Sequence record: MW250785
Source: Escherichia phage UPEC03
Direction: 5' to 3' (one strand)
DNA length: 64,000 bases
This document shows positions 2,325 through 31,531 of this stretch, one piece after another (within the stretch, counting starts at the first letter, position 1; every line of letters starts with the position of its first letter). The notes under the pieces are model-generated. The model worked only from the letters and a program-made list of their open reading frames with translations. It made no database searches and had not been told where the DNA came from. The translations under genes and the position numbers were made by a program.

Positions 2325-3188
2325 ATGTTCTATAGCGTAGATGAATTTTTGTCAGGAATGGCAAATAGAGACTTTCAGCGAAGCAACCTGTTTAGTGTTG
2401 TATTCGCAACCAGTCCTGCATCACGCATTCTCGACAGCACGATCGGGAGTATCCGCGATACTTTAATAGATGGTACTATGAGTTCCATTAACGCGAATAA
2501 CCCGAACGAGTTCATGAACGCTATTACAGGGGGCGTAAGCAAGCTATTCAGCTATACAGTTGATAAAGCTATTATGTCCCTGAACAAAACAGGTTTCAGT
2601 AAAATCATGGGGGCGTTAAGCCCTCGTTTAATTACTTCCCTGTTTGGTGATAGTGTTTACGGACAGATGCTAACAGAATTCCGTGACAAAATGATGTATA
2701 ATATGGGGTTGAGCATCGTTGGTGTTCAGTTGCCTGGCAAAACGCTGGGTTATGAATACGTGTATAATGGCGGTGTACCCCAGATCCGATTCACCCGACC
2801 GGAGAATGGAGAATTATCACTAACGTTCCGTGTGGATTCAGAAGCGCGTAACCTGAAAGTATTCAACGAATGGTTATCGGCTATTCGCGATGATATTACA
2901 GGCCAGTTCGCATTCATTGATGAAGTATCAAGCGCGATCCAGGTAAACTTACACAATCGCGATGGTGTCCCGCACAGCACGTATGTATTCCAGAAGTGTT
3001 TGCCTGTTAAAGTCAGCAACCCAGAACTGAGTTATGAAAGCAATAACGAAATCTGGACATTCACTGTTGACTTTGCATATAAAACAGGCTGGCTTGTCGA
3101 AGCAGATAAAGAAGGTTGGGACGGATTCAAACAATCACTTATCGAAGGGGCAGCAATTGCCGTTCGTGGTGTGGTTACAGGACAATAA
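2325..3188 (+). CDS. 54: Baseplate tail tube initiator (T4 gp54-like)
   Basis: 287 aa, tightly coupled downstream of gp48-like gene; assignment by synteny and size only. Confidence 0.5.
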   Translation: MFYSVDEFLSGMANRDFQRSNLFSVVFATSPASRILDSTIGSIRDTLIDGTMSSINANNPNEFMNAITGGVSKLFSYTVDKAIMSLNKTGFSKIMGALSPRLITSLFGDSVYGQMLTEFRDKMMYNMGLSIVGVQLPGKTLGYEYVYNGGVPQIRFTRPENGELSLTFRVDSEARNLKVFNEWLSAIRDDITGQFAFIDEVSSAIQVNLHNRDGVPHSTYVFQKCLPVKVSNPELSYESNNEIWTFTVDFAYKTGWLVEADKEGWDGFKQSLIEGAAIAVRGVVTGQ

Positions 3189-24712: not shown

Positions 24713-26059
24713 TTAAAAGTTCTCTTCGACGAATGCAGCCAGTCGCCCACGATATACGGTATCCAGGATCACATGACTTGAATGACCGTACTCTTTAAGT
24801 TTTTCAACCGCATACACAAAGCCGTTGTTAACAGCAGTGTTGCGCGGGTTGTCAATCTGTTTAATGTTCCCGCATAGTATCAGAAGGGTGTTCTCACCGC
24901 AACGGGAAATGATGGATTTGATTTCGTGATTGCTCAAGTTTTGACATTCATCAACAATCAGAACCGAACCTTTACCCGGATCAGGATGCCCGATTGAGCG
25001 CCCACGGAAGTAATACAGGCTAGGGAACTGGACAACGTTTTTCTCCAGCAGCCCTTCTACGTATTTGTCAACTTCCGGTTGATCCTTAAACAGAATGTTC
25101 AGGCTCGTAATACATGGTTCTACAGCAGGACGCAGTTTTTCGCCAAGAGTACCAGGTAAGAACCCGATTTCGCCCGACAGAGGGCTATCTGCCTTGACAT
25201 ACATCAGGTTTGCGAAGTGTCCCGCGTTTACCATGTGCATTGCACCAGCAACAGCCAGCATGGTTTTACCTGAACCCGCCGCGCCCATGATGGTCACAAC
25301 GTCATTGTTTTTGTCCAGAATAGCATCAACGAATGACGCTTGCAGAGCATCGCGAGGCTGAATTGTTTTCATCAGCTTACGCTTTAACGCCTGTTCGTGC
25401 TTAATAGGCAACACTTCAAGCTGAAACTCTCCAGCATTCACCACACGCCCTACAATCTCACCACACGATAGAATGTATTGGTTAGGGTAGAAATCCGCGT
25501 CAGGAAGCGATGAATACGTTATAACGGCAACAGGCCCGACATACTCCAGGACTTCAACAGTTTCCCAGAACAGAGGCAGGTCGATATAACCTGAATACAA
25601 CACATCACTATCTTTCAGCGAGTCATCGCCAGTGTATTGAAGAACCGAACAACCTTTAGACATCGCGATCAACAGCATGTTAATGTCACGAGTCACCAGA
25701 GTTGCGCCCTGCTGAATACAAGTTGCAATGATCCGCGCATCCTGTTTATCCAGAGGGAATTCTTCGGTGCCGTCATAATCGACGATTTTCAGTGTTACGC
25801 TTTCCGGTACTGCTGGGTTCGATAAGTTTAACGAAACCCCTGTTTGGGTAATTGCTTCATAATTTTGTCCCAGGATTGCTTTGGACAAAAGCCGGATCGC
25901 CAGTCGTGCTTCATGAGCGGTTCGCTCTTTGCTTTTCAGGTGATCCAGTTCTTCCATCGTTGCAGCGGTGATAATGATTTCGCTGTCAGGTTCGATGTAA
26001 GAATAGATTGAATATGGGTTACTAATCAAAACATTGGTGTCTAATACGTATTTTGACAT
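24713..26059 (-). CDS. phoH: PhoH-like ATPase with N-terminal PIN domain
   Basis: N-terminal YVLDTNVLI (PIN-like); Walker A GAAGSGKT; Walker B LIVDEC. Confidence 0.8.
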   Translation of the reverse strand: MSKYVLDTNVLISNPYSIYSYIEPDSEIIITAATMEELDHLKSKERTAHEARLAIRLLSKAILGQNYEAITQTGVSLNLSNPAVPESVTLKIVDYDGTEEFPLDKQDARIIATCIQQGATLVTRDINMLLIAMSKGCSVLQYTGDDSLKDSDVLYSGYIDLPLFWETVEVLEYVGPVAVITYSSLPDADFYPNQYILSCGEIVGRVVNAGEFQLEVLPIKHEQALKRKLMKTIQPRDALQASFVDAILDKNNDVVTIMGAAGSGKTMLAVAGAMHMVNAGHFANLMYVKADSPLSGEIGFLPGTLGEKLRPAVEPCITSLNILFKDQPEVDKYVEGLLEKNVVQFPSLYYFRGRSIGHPDPGKGSVLIVDECQNLSNHEIKSIISRCGENTLLILCGNIKQIDNPRNTAVNNGFVYAVEKLKEYGHSSHVILDTVYRGRLAAFVEENF

Positions 26060-26068
26060 ACATTAACC

Positions 26069-26593
26069 TTATGTGGTTTCGTTAAAAAATGTGCCGAAAA
26101 CCTCTTTCGCTTTCCGGTCATAAACGGCTTTTGCTTCTTCTGGAGTGGTATAATACCCCAAAAATTTTCTTTTTCCATCTATGTTTATCTGCGCTTTATA
26201 CTTCCCATTTGCTTTGTGATAAGAAACACCTTTCAACCCCGTACTGCTGTTTGAATTACATTTCTTTTTCATCGCGTTTTGTTGGTTCGTCGCTTTCTGT
26301 AGATTTCTTGCTGTATCTCCATTTTCAACACCATACACATGATCTACGATAGGAGGAAGATAACCATTCTCAACGTAAAACACTATTCGGTGTCGCAAAT
26401 ACATAGAACCTTTAAAATGAATTTGGGAATACTCGTTCTTGCTTCCGGCTTCACTTCCAGGAGACATAGGGCCGCGCTGAATTTTCCAATACACTTTTCC
26501 CGTAGATGTATCAACATCTACATAACTCAGAAGAGACTCAATCCCTTGAATCTCTTCCTGTATGGTTCTTGATGAATAACCATGACTTTTCAT
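26069..26593 (-). CDS. HNH endonuclease with AP2-like domain (paralog of 11917-12453)
   Basis: MKSHGYSSRTIQEEIQGIESLL... parallels the other HNH-AP2 protein; AP2-like LKGVSYHKANGKYKAQINIDGKRKFLGYY; ATG at 26593 overlaps upstream stop by 1 nt. Confidence 0.7.
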   Translation of the reverse strand: MKSHGYSSRTIQEEIQGIESLLSYVDVDTSTGKVYWKIQRGPMSPGSEAGSKNEYSQIHFKGSMYLRHRIVFYVENGYLPPIVDHVYGVENGDTARNLQKATNQQNAMKKKCNSNSSTGLKGVSYHKANGKYKAQINIDGKRKFLGYYTTPEEAKAVYDRKAKEVFGTFFNETT

Positions 26594-27063
26594 TACATAC
26601 CCAAACGGATAATATGGATATATGGGAACGGGTGAAGATGACTTGAACGCATACACAAGGTCAGTGTTTTTGCCAGTTCAAACCGTTCGTCGATCGTCAT
26701 GTCGCATTCATCGAAAATCAGGTTGATTGCCTGATACTTGATCGTTTGTCCACGGAAAATGGTATTCAGATCTTGACGTTTCGACAGAATGAAAGACGAA
26801 TCAGCGCCCTTATCCATTCCATGTTCTGCCGCAGCACAAATACCCATTTGCTTTGTCGGCGCAACGTAGATATTCAGTGTCCCTTTCGACTGCTTGATGA
26901 TATCGAAAGCCGCTTTGGTTTTACCCGACATCCGGCCCATATCCAGCGCAGTTTCGAAAATAGACACACCGCCGCATTCTTGCCCCCAACGCCCATCAAT
27001 GATTCGCGCAAGGTGCAGGTTACGTGACTGCTTTACAGCGTCAACATAGAATTGTGAAATCAT
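26593..27063 (-). CDS. Hypothetical P-loop-like protein (156 aa)
   Basis: Deviant Walker A-like GRMSGKT and Walker B-like LIFDECD; directly upstream of the HNH gene. Confidence 0.4.
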   Translation of the reverse strand: MISQFYVDAVKQSRNLHLARIIDGRWGQECGGVSIFETALDMGRMSGKTKAAFDIIKQSKGTLNIYVAPTKQMGICAAAEHGMDKGADSSFILSKRQDLNTIFRGQTIKYQAINLIFDECDMTIDERFELAKTLTLCMRSSHLHPFPYIHIIRLGM

Positions 27064-27072
27064 GTTGTCGCC

Positions 27073-27468
27073 TTATGCAAGTTCAACGTGTGGTGCGTCG
27101 ATAAATTTCGTTTCAATAGGAAGATTTGGATCGTTCTTCCAGTTGATACCGTAACGCAGTTTTACACCCTGTTCACCAGCGGCTTGTTTCACTGCATTCA
27201 GGACAGGCAACCACACTTTCGGGTTAGTCTGCCAGCCAGCAGGGAGAACGCTAGGATACAGATCCACAGCATCACCAGTGATGTGTTTTGAGTTCATGGT
27301 CTGGGAAACACCCTTGCGGACGTTCTCGCGCTGTTGCTCTACGGTGCGCAGACCTTCGCGTACACCAAAATCAACAGGCGAGAGTTCCAAAGCACGTTTT
27401 ACCACCTTAACCAGTTCCGGCTTCACGCCTTGCAGGTTGTTCAGGCTTTTCTGACTAAATTTAAACAT
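27073..27468 (-). CDS. Endolysin, L-alanyl-D-glutamate peptidase (M15 family, T5 Lys-like)
   Basis: SKHITGDAVDL (SxHxxGxAxD) and C-terminal DAPHVELA; overall pattern resembles T5 endolysin; AGAGG SD. Confidence 0.8.
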   Translation of the reverse strand: MFKFSQKSLNNLQGVKPELVKVVKRALELSPVDFGVREGLRTVEQQRENVRKGVSQTMNSKHITGDAVDLYPSVLPAGWQTNPKVWLPVLNAVKQAAGEQGVKLRYGINWKNDPNLPIETKFIDAPHVELA

Positions 27469-27535
27469 ACATACCTCTTTATGAAAATACCCTATGGGCT
27501 ACACAGGGTATTTACGGTTTAAGAGGCGCAACGTT

Positions 27536-27961
27536 TTACATGTAACCCCAAATTGCATCTTCCGCGCGATCGCGTTTCCAGCGAATCGTCATTTCAACAC
27601 TCTCCTGTTTGTCATCAGGAGGAAGTTTATCATTATTGATTTGTTCAATATATGCTTGCGCATCTGCTTCGCTACGGAACAACGCATGGAAATTATAATG
27701 GTTGCGCCCAGTTACGTTACGATCATCCAGAGAGAATTGACCTTTATTTTCCCAATCATCATACACAGTGATTCCGTTAACAAACAGCCCCAGCCCACGA
27801 TGTTCACGCGGGAAGCCAGTGATGATATGTTTTCGACCCATCTGTGCCTTTTCACCAGTGATACTGATTACTTCGTACAGGATTGCGCCAGGTTTGATAT
27901 CTTTCAGGACAGCACGTTTTTCAAAAGCGTTCATAATGTATTCCTCACAATTAGTTTTCAT
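27536..27961 (-). CDS. Hypothetical protein (141 aa; start may be internal ATG)
   Basis: ORF with ATG start. Confidence 0.45.
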   Translation of the reverse strand: MKTNCEEYIMNAFEKRAVLKDIKPGAILYEVISITGEKAQMGRKHIITGFPREHRGLGLFVNGITVYDDWENKGQFSLDDRNVTGRNHYNFHALFRSEADAQAYIEQINNDKLPPDDKQESVEMTIRWKRDRAEDAIWGYM

Positions 27962-27989
27962 ATACAGATTACCACAATCTGTTTTGATG

Positions 27990-28310
27990 TCAACAAGGTC
28001 TATCGTTTTTATTTGGGAAAGTTAACTGGAACAGGCGATCGTGTAATCCCTCGATCCGCTCATACGCTTGTTTCAGGATCGTCTTATCTTCTGGGTTCGT
28101 TGTCTCGATACAGATCAGTTCGTCCGAGTCGATAGCGATCACATCATCCATCAGTGAAGCGAATACGTTCACGTCAGGGTGAGTCAATTCCTTTATCTCC
28201 GCTTCCATCCCGTCATGCTGGGATAACAGTTCGATGATATCGCGCTGTAGATCTCCCTGGTACGGGAATCCGGTTTGAAGATGGTTAATAATTCTTTCTG
28301 CTTTGGTCAT
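27990..28310 (-). CDS. Hypothetical acidic protein (106 aa)
   Basis: ATG preceded by AGGTG and a hairpin (28325-28345). Confidence 0.45.
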   Translation of the reverse strand: MTKAERIINHLQTGFPYQGDLQRDIIELLSQHDGMEAEIKELTHPDVNVFASLMDDVIAIDSDELICIETTNPEDKTILKQAYERIEGLHDRLFQLTFPNKNDRPC

Positions 28311-30084: not shown

Positions 30085-30377
30085 CAGAATGTGATCTCCG
30101 CAAACTGCATTCTACGCTCAATCGCATGGATAGCGTTATCACGCTGTTCTTTGTTTTCATATCCAGCCCAGGTAATCGGAGTTGAACAGATCAGGTGAAA
30201 AGTGATTGCTGGGTGTCTCTTCCCTTCAACAACGATTGTTGCATCATCTTCGATCCAGGTTACGTGATCCAGATTCACCGGATAGTTTCTTACGGTAACA
30301 GTTTCACCAACCATAGGCGACACGTCCAGAATATCACGATCACGAACGTATGATTTAATACGAGATACGATTAACAT
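30084..30377 (-). CDS. Hypothetical protein (97 aa)
   Basis: 1-nt overlap with the upstream large gene. Confidence 0.45.
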   Translation of the reverse strand: MLIVSRIKSYVRDRDILDVSPMVGETVTVRNYPVNLDHVTWIEDDATIVVEGKRHPAITFHLICSTPITWAGYENKEQRDNAIHAIERRMQFAEITF

Positions 30378-31531
30378 TATTTCAACTCCACTGCATATAC
30401 ATCGGTTTCAGGGGCTTTGTGTACGCGCATATCTTTACCACATACCGCATAAGCCGGACAGTTACGGCAACCGTTATGATCCTTGTTGCCCGTCAGTTCT
30501 TTACGGAACTGTTTTGTTTTCGGGTGTTCCCAGATATCCTTCACAAAATCTTCGGCTTCCAGAACATCCAGACCTTCTTCCCAGCCACCTTCAACCCAAC
30601 GTTCGGTAAACGAGCAAGGGAAGAACTGACCACGTTCATTAATGTAAGAGCTAAACATCGTCGCTTCACAGTCTTCGGCGTATTGCTTGTACTGTTCGAA
30701 GTTCGGGTGTCCCTCCATCGCTTCAACGAAAGCGGGGGCTGAACAGCTATCGAATCCAAATCCTACACCAGAATCGAGGCAATATTCAACAAGTTTTTTA
30801 TATTGTTCGCGGGTAACGGTGTCCCAGTTCTTACCGCGTCCTTTTTGTTTCAGTCCCAGGAACACGATCGCGTTGACTTGTTTCAGGCGCGGATCATTCT
30901 TCACGGCATCAACCACGTTAAACGCATCATCATAGGTTTTCGAGCTAACCATGAAGTGAAGGTTGATTTGCTGTTGTCCGGCTTCTGTCAGGTTCGCTAC
31001 TGAGTCGAAAGCGACATCAAAACCAGCGTGTTTATAAACCGATACCGCAACAGCCCCAGCAACCGCCGCTAAACGCGCTGCAACGTCTTTTGATACGTCA
31101 GCAATGGTAAGGTTCGGTACAATGCCTTTAGAACGCGCATACGCCATCATATCGAACATATCAGGGTTTGTTTGCCCCTGTGCATCAGCACCGAGTGCGC
31201 ATTGAGTCAGCCAGGGCATTTTGTCGATGATTTTTTTGAAGTTGGCAAGATCCATGTTGAACCCGTTAGGGTTATTGGACTTGTAGCAGAACCCGCAGAG
31301 TTTACCAGCGGGACCATTACATTTGGTAGTGATCTCAACATCCAAGATTTCTGGGAATGGGGCATAGGTAGGATCAGTTTCGAACGATGTTCCCCAGCGA
31401 GCAAACTCACCAGTTTTAACGTTGAAATTGTAGTTGTACCAATTAGAGCGAGCGAAGCGCATATTACCCTGCTGGTAAATCATTAGCGAAGGGGCTTTCA
31501 TTACAGTCTGTGCGCGGTCAATAATATCCAT
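30377..31531 (-). CDS. Cys-rich protein, radical-SAM/SPASM-like (tentative; non-canonical Cx7CxFC)
   Basis: N-terminal CNGPAGKLCGFCY (aromatic residue before the third Cys); C-terminal CRNCPAYAVCG cluster; 384 aa. Confidence 0.4.
   Translation of the reverse strand: MDIIDRAQTVMKAPSLMIYQQGNMRFARSNWYNYNFNVKTGEFARWGTSFETDPTYAPFPEILDVEITTKCNGPAGKLCGFCYKSNNPNGFNMDLANFKKIIDKMPWLTQCALGADAQGQTNPDMFDMMAYARSKGIVPNLTIADVSKDVAARLAAVAGAVAVSVYKHAGFDVAFDSVANLTEAGQQQINLHFMVSSKTYDDAFNVVDAVKNDPRLKQVNAIVFLGLKQKGRGKNWDTVTREQYKKLVEYCLDSGVGFGFDSCSAPAFVEAMEGHPNFEQYKQYAEDCEATMFSSYINERGQFFPCSFTERWVEGGWEEGLDVLEAEDFVKDIWEHPKTKQFRKELTGNKDHNGCRNCPAYAVCGKDMRVHKAPETDVYAVELK

Follow-up and report, generated by a model that had tools for sequence, protein, structure and literature searches.

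A lone RecA-like domain is normally completed at its active site by a second domain or by a neighbouring subunit. The large terminase of phage T4 (gp17; PDB 2O0H/3EZK), a protein of about 600 aa, has an ATPase with a subdomain II and a nuclease domain. SF2 helicases (DExD/H-box, Snf2 and UvsW/RadD-type) contain two tandem RecA-like domains with motifs I-VI, and in the F1-ATPase alpha subunit the RecA-type core is flanked by barrel and helical domains and assembles into a ring. A different arrangement is described in mycobacteria, where PhoH2 is co-transcribed with, and bound by, the upstream-encoded PhoAT (PMC4826407).

The window, i.e. the whole 64,000-nucleotide stretch of Escherichia phage UPEC03 analysed here (sequence record MW250785), encodes a 156-aa protein (hereafter the ORF) that we compared with these systems. 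It shares with gp17 the pattern T..[ND]h[SG]RxxGKT, an RG dipeptide and hDEC, but it has neither the nuclease domain nor ATPase subdomain II, is 156 aa long instead of about 600, and separates RG from D by 14 residues where gp17 has 10. Compared to SF2 helicases, the smallest of which are about three times its size, it has one domain, without the second RecA domain and motifs IV-VI; no Q-motif was identified in it and it stops at the position of motif III. With F1-ATPase alpha, a profile of the ORF is in register with GDRQTGKT...YVAIGQK over the P-loop, the helix and the next strand, and F1 subunits are among the Foldseek matches of the ORF model, but the flanking barrel and helical domains are absent and there is no sign of ring assembly. 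On balance we regard the ORF as probably a complete, expressed-looking accessory gene, encoding a minimal stand-alone ASCE/RecA-like P-loop domain.

The gene and the adjoining HNH-AP2 element

The ORF is a conserved gene of RB16/GAP161/KP15-type T4-like phages (Pseudotevenvirus, Slopekvirus and a few relatives). Over the surrounding 1.6 kb the DNA shares 98-99% identity with GAP161/RB16-type phages of Klebsiella, Cronobacter and Enterobacter (Straboviridae, Pseudotevenvirus), and in parts about 90% with KP15-type Slopekvirus phages. The features of the locus and of the protein are given in Table 1.

Table 1. Features of the locus (window coordinates) and elements of the protein (residue numbers).
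Feature	Position	Strand	Residues	Remarks
g100-like protein	27536-27961	minus		
Endolysin, M15 L-alanyl-D-glutamate peptidase type	27073-27468	minus		Upstream neighbour; stop 9 nt before the ATG of the ORF
ORF	26593-27063	minus	156 aa	17.6 kDa, pI 8.7; phrog_2586; predicted single RecA-like P-loop domain
GRMSGKT	26917-26937	minus	43-49	Deviant Walker A / P-loop; between strand 34-40 and helix 48-58 (model)
R104-G105	26749-26754	minus	104-105	Conserved; loop preceding the Walker B strand
LIFDECD	26701-26721	minus	115-121	Walker B-like, DExD-type; end of predicted strand 112-118
YIHIIRLGM	26596-26622	minus	148-156	C-terminal strand; H150 and G155 invariant; protein end
HNH-AP2 homing endonuclease gene	26069-26593	minus	174 aa	Free-standing; HNH_3 and AP2 (Pfam); phrog_99 'HNH endonuclease', E 1e-55
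PIN-PhoH (PhoH2-type)	24713-26059	minus		Conserved downstream neighbour
Two small zinc-ribbon ORFs, 189-aa protein, Vs.1-like transglycosylase		minus		After PIN-PhoH
Model helix			2-22	
Model strand			34-40	
Model helix			48-58	Begins at K48
Model strand			63-68	
Model helix			71-80	
Model strand			90-94	
Model strand			112-118	Ends at D118
Model helix			124-137	
Model strand			148-154	

The start codon of the HNH-AP2 gene (ATG at 26593-26591) overlaps the TAA stop codon of the ORF by one base (TAATG). A longer, GTG-initiated frame of the HNH gene (26656) is unsupported: the KP15 DNA upstream of the ATG is unrelated, and identity begins at GGGTATGTAATG. A preliminary description of this DNA had placed the ORF directly upstream of an HNH insertion, and the presence or absence of the HNH gene among close relatives shows that it is indeed an insertion. 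It sits in the intergenic spacer between the ORF and PhoH, not inside the ORF.

The same description considered that the ORF could be the remnant of a gene disrupted by this insertion, i.e. the truncated 5' part of a larger gene. The overlap of the two codons is in keeping with such an event, as is the fact that the protein ends where a helicase motif III or a fifth strand is expected; moreover, cases of genes split by an HNH-AP2 gene are known from other phages. Nevertheless, HNH-less relatives from four lineages carry a gene of the same length with the same C-terminal ...IHIIRLGM end. In the HNH-less Citrobacter phage Margaery a 471-nt gene at the same place encodes 156 aa, 97% identical to the ORF and with the same ...PYIHIIRLGM-TAA end, and the two phages share 95-100% DNA identity across endolysin and ORF, TAAT still included, before diverging exactly there. 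The other HNH-less orthologs have 155 aa in Miller, 152 aa in RB16 and in Slopekvirus phi1_146007, and 159 aa in Yersinia phage JC221. What follows the HNH gene is the beginning of PIN-PhoH and not more of the ORF. Pairwise dN/dS of the ORF is 0.09-0.27, and neither 5.8 billion protein clusters nor 1.84 billion representatives contain a longer or multi-domain relative, the latter set having no distant one either. The comparison of orthologous loci that the preliminary description proposed thus returned full-length orthologs of the same size, which is the outcome it had named as contradicting its idea. Because such orthologs exist in HNH-less genomes, the ORF as a fragment or pseudogene produced by homing-endonuclease insertion is refuted, and we give a split larger gene practically no credence.

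The HNH gene is found in 85 phage records, always as a single copy, compared to 171 for the ORF. Its identity is 99.4-100% within 22 GAP161-type phages and about 94.7% in 63 KP15-type phages, while the ORF proteins beside it are only about 42% identical between these two groups. The element therefore moved laterally into the same site. At the DNA level the window and KP15 are about 95% identical over the stretch that starts with TAATG, takes in the HNH gene and reaches ~60 nt into PhoH, as against about 50-60% in the ORF and about 75% in the remainder of PhoH; these first ~60 nt thus travel with the HNH cassette. The presence of the HNH gene is also discordant with the phylogeny of the ORF: Fraggle has an identical HNH gene and an ORF at 88%, and Margaery lacks the HNH gene with an ORF at 97%.

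Relative to Margaery, the first ~850 nt of the window PhoH are only about 80% identical, before identity returns to 95-100%. This drop looks like a one-sided co-conversion tract. The HNH-AP2 gene was inserted immediately past the stop codon of the ORF, leaving the ORF untouched, and replaced a short intergenic hairpin that normally lies between the ORF and PIN-PhoH. The hairpin of the HNH-less relatives has no match in Rfam and no second copy in the window. The locus offers a clean natural case in which two phage genera have a free-standing HNH-AP2 gene at one and the same intergenic site, flanked on only one side by a co-conversion-like tract.

Motifs, conservation and predicted fold

Reading the sequence confirmed the length of 156 aa and both motifs exactly as first described. 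The canonical pattern [AG]x4GK[ST] finds no match in the protein, the first Gly being shifted by one residue, and the strict Walker B pattern with four hydrophobic residues is not matched either, since three hydrophobics precede DE and N114 intervenes. The cautious wording of the preliminary description ("P-loop-like", "deviant") was therefore fair. The local sequence resembles helicase motifs I (GKT), Ia (YVAPT), the Ib position (RG) and II (DECD).

To what extent chance could produce such motifs was estimated on 200,000 shuffles of the 156-aa protein. GK[ST] occurs in 9% of them and a hydrophobic-x3-D[DE] motif (h3D[DE]) in 8.4%; both together, in the correct order and spacing, occur in 0.2%, and RxxGK[ST] together with the second motif in 0.014%. 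These frequencies are those of one ORF, in a window that holds about 86 long ORFs, so that a chance origin of the pair is unlikely, though not absurd. Conservation is a stronger argument than the shuffles: chance is rejected because K48 and D118 are invariant, and R44 and E119 nearly so, among relatives reaching down to 29% identity.

In the family alignment (29-99% identity) M1, Y6, T38, L40, G43, K48, G105, D118, H150 and G155 are invariant, and D41, R44, R104, I116, E119, C120 and I152 are conserved in at least 90% of members. The most conserved positions thus include the Walker A Lys, the Walker B Asp and, nearly, the catalytic Glu, as well as the RG dipeptide and the C-terminal strand (hH.IRhG). 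T/S49 is nearly invariant and most members have the full GK[ST] and DE set. Disparities nevertheless appear at some of these positions. G47 is replaced by Gln throughout the Slopekvirus (KP15) clade, which reads GR(E/R)TQKT with Gln in place of the Gly before the Lys, and in which R153 is also changed, to Ser; G47 is Cys in one distant member (P0032), and E119 is replaced in two members (by G and by D).

The ORF matches over its full length a phage family of unknown function, phrog_2586 (E 2e-38; residues 1-155 align with profile positions 3-166 of 166). Among 5.8 billion protein clusters 29 relatives of 150-160 aa were found, and 1.84 billion representatives, searched exhaustively with a profile, gave nine clusters, all of 150-164 aa. 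By tblastn the ORF is full-length in 170 of its 171 phage records; a search started from the most divergent member gave virtually the same set, with one or two changes (Pantoea phage Phynn being gained). Two IMG/VR contigs encode the identical protein. Between the window and KP15 the protein is 42% identical, whereas the endolysins share 94%, the g100-like proteins 85% and the PhoH proteins 80%. The ORF thus diverges much faster than all its neighbours, by a factor put at three. Such fast divergence is typical of accessory, host-interaction genes.

An AlphaFold2 model of the protein was built on the family alignment, which is shallow (22 sequences), and has a pLDDT of 80.3 and a pTM of 0.80. 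In it GKT lies where a strand passes through a loop into a helix, and a strand ends at DE; this predicted layout of elements is that of P-loop geometry. The model has about five strands in one domain, with no strand beyond the position of motif III. The domain would begin with an N-terminal helix and a strand, followed by the P-loop (GRxSGKT), a helix, a strand carrying the motif Ia-like YVAPT, a helix and a strand; then would come the RG loop, the Walker B strand (LIFDECD), a helix, the final strand and the C-terminus. The C-terminal strand (aa 148-156) appears to take the place of the strand that bears helicase motif III, the terminase C-motif or sensor 1. The ORF would thus correspond to domain 1 of an SF2 helicase, or to the ATPase core of a terminase, cut at the position of motif III.

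The list of structural neighbours comprises Fft3 (listed value 10.5), Aquarius/cwf11 and T4 UvsW (both 10.2), RadD and ZorD (both 10.1), HsdR (9.5) and the T4 gp17 terminase ATPase (8.6), and likewise RIG-I and DEAD-box proteins. Foldseek also found these classes and added SF1 helicases and F1-ATPase, with weak E-values in the PDB (at least 1.4e-3). In BFVD, the model of a Slopekvirus ortholog superposes on that of the ORF at TM 0.88-0.91, and matches at TM 0.5-0.67 are uncharacterised phage proteins of 143-183 aa (T5-like PR1, CGG4-1, Mendera, JSF10, phiAS5 and phiRSL1).

For the ASCE class, the predicted structure provides the three-layer alpha/beta fold and the similarity to known members. 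The Walker B motif is found as LIFDE at the end of strand 112-118, with D118 invariant and E119 conserved in at least 90% of members, two having G or D. For Walker A, GK[ST] is present with an invariant K48 in a predicted strand-loop-helix, with the first Gly shifted and G47 replaced by Q or C in some members. We therefore describe the ORF as a predicted ASCE/RecA-like P-loop domain of the helicase/terminase type.

Relationship to helicases and terminases

Neither the window protein nor divergent members of its family scored above threshold in Pfam, NCBIfam or PADLOC. Pfam DEAD, with a cut-off of 26 bits, was approached below threshold by the window protein (E 0.2) and best by another of the 22 members (E 0.0072); four of the 22 have weak matches to the DEAD family, and a few have sub-threshold matches to AAA_14 and ATPase_2. 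In a profile search of the PDB the only match was the P-loop of F1-alpha, in register and insignificant (E 0.68). Two independent GenBank annotators labelled orthologs 'DNA helicase' and 'terminase large subunit'.

As a helicase, the ORF gives no significant match to a helicase model (DEAD, ResIII or SNF2). Two tandem RecA-like domains with motifs I-VI were not found: a single domain is predicted and no relative exceeds 164 aa. No Helicase_C-type protein or second helicase domain is encoded by the neighbouring genes. BLASTP likewise showed no relationship between the ORF and the ATPase domain of the adjacent PhoH.

The likeness to a terminase had been proposed from the RxxGKT spacing, and it holds at the level of motifs against T4 gp17 (PDB 3EZK). 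The deviant Walker A with Arg (xRxxGK[ST]) and the hDE Walker B are both found, as GRMSGKT and LIFDEC in the ORF and as SRQLGKT and YIDEC in gp17. Residues 141-298 of gp17, identical to PDB 3EZK, read TVCNLSRQLGKT ... AVRGNSFAMIYIDEC in these stretches, and their counterpart in the ORF reads TALDMGRMSGKT ... FRGQTIKYQAINLIFDEC. A literature search for the gp17 Walker A string returned nothing; the motif was confirmed on the PDB sequences. R104-G105 falls at the position of gp17 R245-G246 and of helicase motif Ib, and could serve as an arginine finger or as a contact to nucleic acid. Beyond the motifs, hhalign of the ORF family with gp17 residues 141-298 aligned 16 columns, in the P-loop only, with a probability of 6%. 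No fusion of the ATPase to an RNase H-like nuclease and no Pfam or PHROG terminase match were found, and the real terminase of this phage is presumably a separate gene, as in T4-like genomes generally. Since the defining second domain is absent, the ORF is not a member of the helicase family or of the terminase family.

Possible activity and partners

The preliminary description also suggested a small ATPase. The fold and the conservation of the motifs support this part, but the lack of a match to any curated family, the missing second RecA domain and the variants at G47 and E119 do not. Judging from the model, the ORF likely has a P-loop fold and binds nucleotide; for an active NTPase the chances appear roughly even. 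A nucleoside triphosphate would most likely be bound via K48 and T49 and Mg2+ via D118, with E119 as the probable catalytic base. As the ORF has no second RecA domain, efficient hydrolysis would need self-association or a partner supplying an arginine; R44, R104 and R153 are candidates.

The changes at G47 (to Q or C) and at E119 are as compatible with a site that only binds, or has degenerated, as with an enzyme. They are among the observations that could make of the ORF a degenerate P-loop pseudo-ATPase without hydrolysis, serving as adaptor, regulator or decoy for a nucleic-acid enzyme of the host or the phage, its divergence reflecting an arms race. The single domain without an obvious arginine-finger domain in cis in the model, the absence of sequence membership in any ATPase family and a divergence far above that of the neighbours are in line with this. 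However, the invariance of K48 and D118 and the near invariance of T/S49, R44 and E119 are hard to explain without a nucleotide/Mg2+ site, and most members keep the whole motif set; we hold a pseudo-ATPase to be rather unlikely, if worth keeping in mind. A small nucleotide or nucleoside kinase of the kinase-GTPase class, acting in nucleotide metabolism, is very improbable: a size of about 150 aa is typical of small P-loop kinases and a cobinamide kinase is found far down the Foldseek list (rank 44), but the acidic DE pair of the Walker B strand and the order in which the neighbours rank (helicases, terminase, F1/RecA-like) point to ASCE, and no kinase family is matched.

The downstream gene raises another possibility, that the ORF is a dedicated partner of PIN-PhoH, comparable by its position to PhoAT, or an additional RecA-like module for the PhoH helicase. 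Like phoAT, the ORF is a small gene immediately upstream of PIN-PhoH and apparently co-transcribed with it, a likeness of position only. The window has no terminator-like site between the endolysin, the ORF, the HNH gene and PhoH, and annotated relatives have terminators upstream of the endolysin and after PhoH; co-transcription is therefore plausible. Moreover, the ORF adjoins PIN-PhoH in Pseudotevenvirus, Slopekvirus, Yersinia phage JC221 and two metagenomic lineages whose ORF identity is only 32%, and the reported binding of PhoH2 by PhoAT offers a precedent (PMC4826407). Against these observations, gene order is generally conserved in T4-like phages, which makes adjacency weak evidence, and the linkage is broken in Pectobacterium phage POP12, which keeps the ORF without an adjoining PhoH. 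Full-length PIN-PhoH is found in 337 phage records compared to 171 for the ORF, about half being without it, and most phage PIN-PhoH genes are not accompanied by the ORF: jumbo, Lactococcus and T5-like phages have PhoH with neither the ORF nor any neighbour of ~150-180 aa, and in the two PIN-PhoH phages inspected (phAPEC6 and Lactococcus AM1) the upstream genes are unrelated. The two genes also form natural mosaics (ORF 75% and PhoH 96% in Miller, 97% and 89% in Margaery), and in half of the genomes the 0.5-kb HNH gene separates them. The case for a dedicated partnership is weak, and we consider it improbable.

The BFVD matches to phage proteins of 143-183 aa and the three-fold faster divergence lead to a broader conjecture, that the ORF family is the tip of an unrecognised class of ~150-aa 'half-helicases' in large phages, for which we see little likelihood. 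It is similarly doubtful that these would be single RecA-like modules, active only by self-assembly or by docking on an ATPase or nuclease such as PIN-PhoH, and we would put no greater trust in the idea that their fast divergence reflects a role in host takeover or counter-defence.

We thus return to a minimal stand-alone P-loop domain as the preferred reading. For annotation, the gene is to be corrected to an intact one, not debris of an HNH insertion, and 'P-loop (RecA-like) domain protein' is a more fitting label than the 'hypothetical', 'DNA helicase' or 'terminase large subunit' of GenBank. If the model is right, this narrow phage family has a minimal version of a very well-known fold, which would not surprise a specialist. 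It is nonetheless unusual that a conserved 17-kDa protein corresponds to only the first half of a helicase or terminase motor, keeping the catalytic Lys, Asp and Glu while evolving much faster than its neighbours. The ORF is worth better annotation and perhaps a biochemical look, and its protein would be a compact system in which to see how a RecA-like domain on its own manages ATP hydrolysis or does without it.

Divergence of the P-loop-like ORF

Between the window and KP15 (Slopekvirus) the 156-aa P-loop-like ORF (window 26593-27063) retains only 42% protein identity, against 94% for the endolysin, 85% for the g100-like protein and 80% for PhoH. The same disparity appears with the more distant locus L019 (32% for the ORF, 67% for PhoH). 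Over the three relatives' loci compared (L002 of KP15, L005 and L019), the ORF diverges far faster than the adjacent genes. Relaxed constraint outside the motifs is one possible cause, an arms-race role another.

Members of the Slopekvirus clade have Gln in place of the Gly of the GKT motif (aa 47), and Ser in place of Arg153, a near-invariant residue where the last strand ends. The two changes occur together (KP15, L002 3194-3652; family members P0028 and P0031) and, because they are confined to this single clade, count as one evolutionary event.

The junction between the ORF and PIN-PhoH

In relatives devoid of the HNH gene the stop of the ORF is separated from the start of PhoH by a hairpin of about 35 nt, GCAGTACGCGGGGTGCGAATCCGCGTACCCYGC, aligned between Margaery (L001), Miller (L008), RB16 (L009) and loci L006, L005 and L019. 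The predicted RNA fold (-25 kcal/mol, z -3) has a stem of 9 bp and a loop of 7 nt, GUGCGAA. The hairpin's conservation across lineages exceeds that of the ORF. The HNH cassette takes the place of the hairpin in the window; no second copy was found within the window, and the hairpin had no match in Rfam. The hairpin may serve as the homing site, or else as an element in RNA processing or regulation.

Relative to Margaery, which lacks the HNH gene, the first ~850 nt of PhoH in the window are only ~80% identical, while the flanks are 95–100% identical. Relative to KP15, the first ~60 nt of PhoH are ~95% identical and the remainder ~75%. The PhoH N-terminus itself exists in two forms, MSKYVLDTN and MKYVLDTN. 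From these sequence comparisons, the 5' tract of PhoH looks like a one-sided co-conversion, which would have been carried along with the homing endonuclease gene.

Between the 189-aa gene and Vs.1, RB16 has a second HNH gene that shares 44% identity with that of the window. In this locus (L015) the Vs.1 match is broken into two overlapping pieces, suggesting an insertion-associated rearrangement or a frameshift.

Coordinates of the features discussed
Feature	Location	Strand	Remarks
ORF aa 47	window 26923-26925
ORF aa 153	window 26605-26607
Hairpin	Margaery (L001) 2658-2711		equivalent window site 26060-26592
5' part of PIN-PhoH, divergent tract	window 25200-26059
RB16 second HNH gene and Vs.1 region	L015 6908-7429 and 7465-8083
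213-aa ORF	window 27494-28135	+
SPASM-domain protein, 384 aa	window 30377-31531	-	Pfam E 3.4e-5
RB43 ortholog	NC_007023.1 88971-89407		BFVD Q56BP0, 130 aa
Annotated orthologs	PP889462.1 135684-136142; PQ187642.1 86910-87362		GenBank

Annotation and possible wider relatives of the ORF

On the opposite strand, the 213-aa ORF overlaps the g100-like gene and those that follow it; this antisense frame is almost certainly spurious. A SPASM iron-sulfur domain protein, presumably a radical-SAM-type enzyme, is encoded in the same block of small uncharacterised genes.

In the older RB43 record (NC_007023.1) the ortholog match falls into two pieces, and the annotation gives a 130-aa protein; the copy in the other RB43 record (HE981739) is full-length. 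The split is probably due to a frameshift or sequencing error. GenBank labels for the orthologs are inconsistent: "DNA helicase" and "terminase large subunit" (PP889462.1, PQ187642.1) both over-interpret one single P-loop domain.

A similar predicted fold was recovered from BFVD in uncharacterised proteins of 143–183 aa (TM 0.5–0.67, E 1e-5 to 1e-3) from phages Providencia PR1, Salmonella CGG4-1, Stenotrophomonas Mendera, Vibrio JSF10, Aeromonas phiAS5 and Ralstonia phiRSL1. Judging from these models, they may represent a broader group of stand-alone mini RecA-like proteins.
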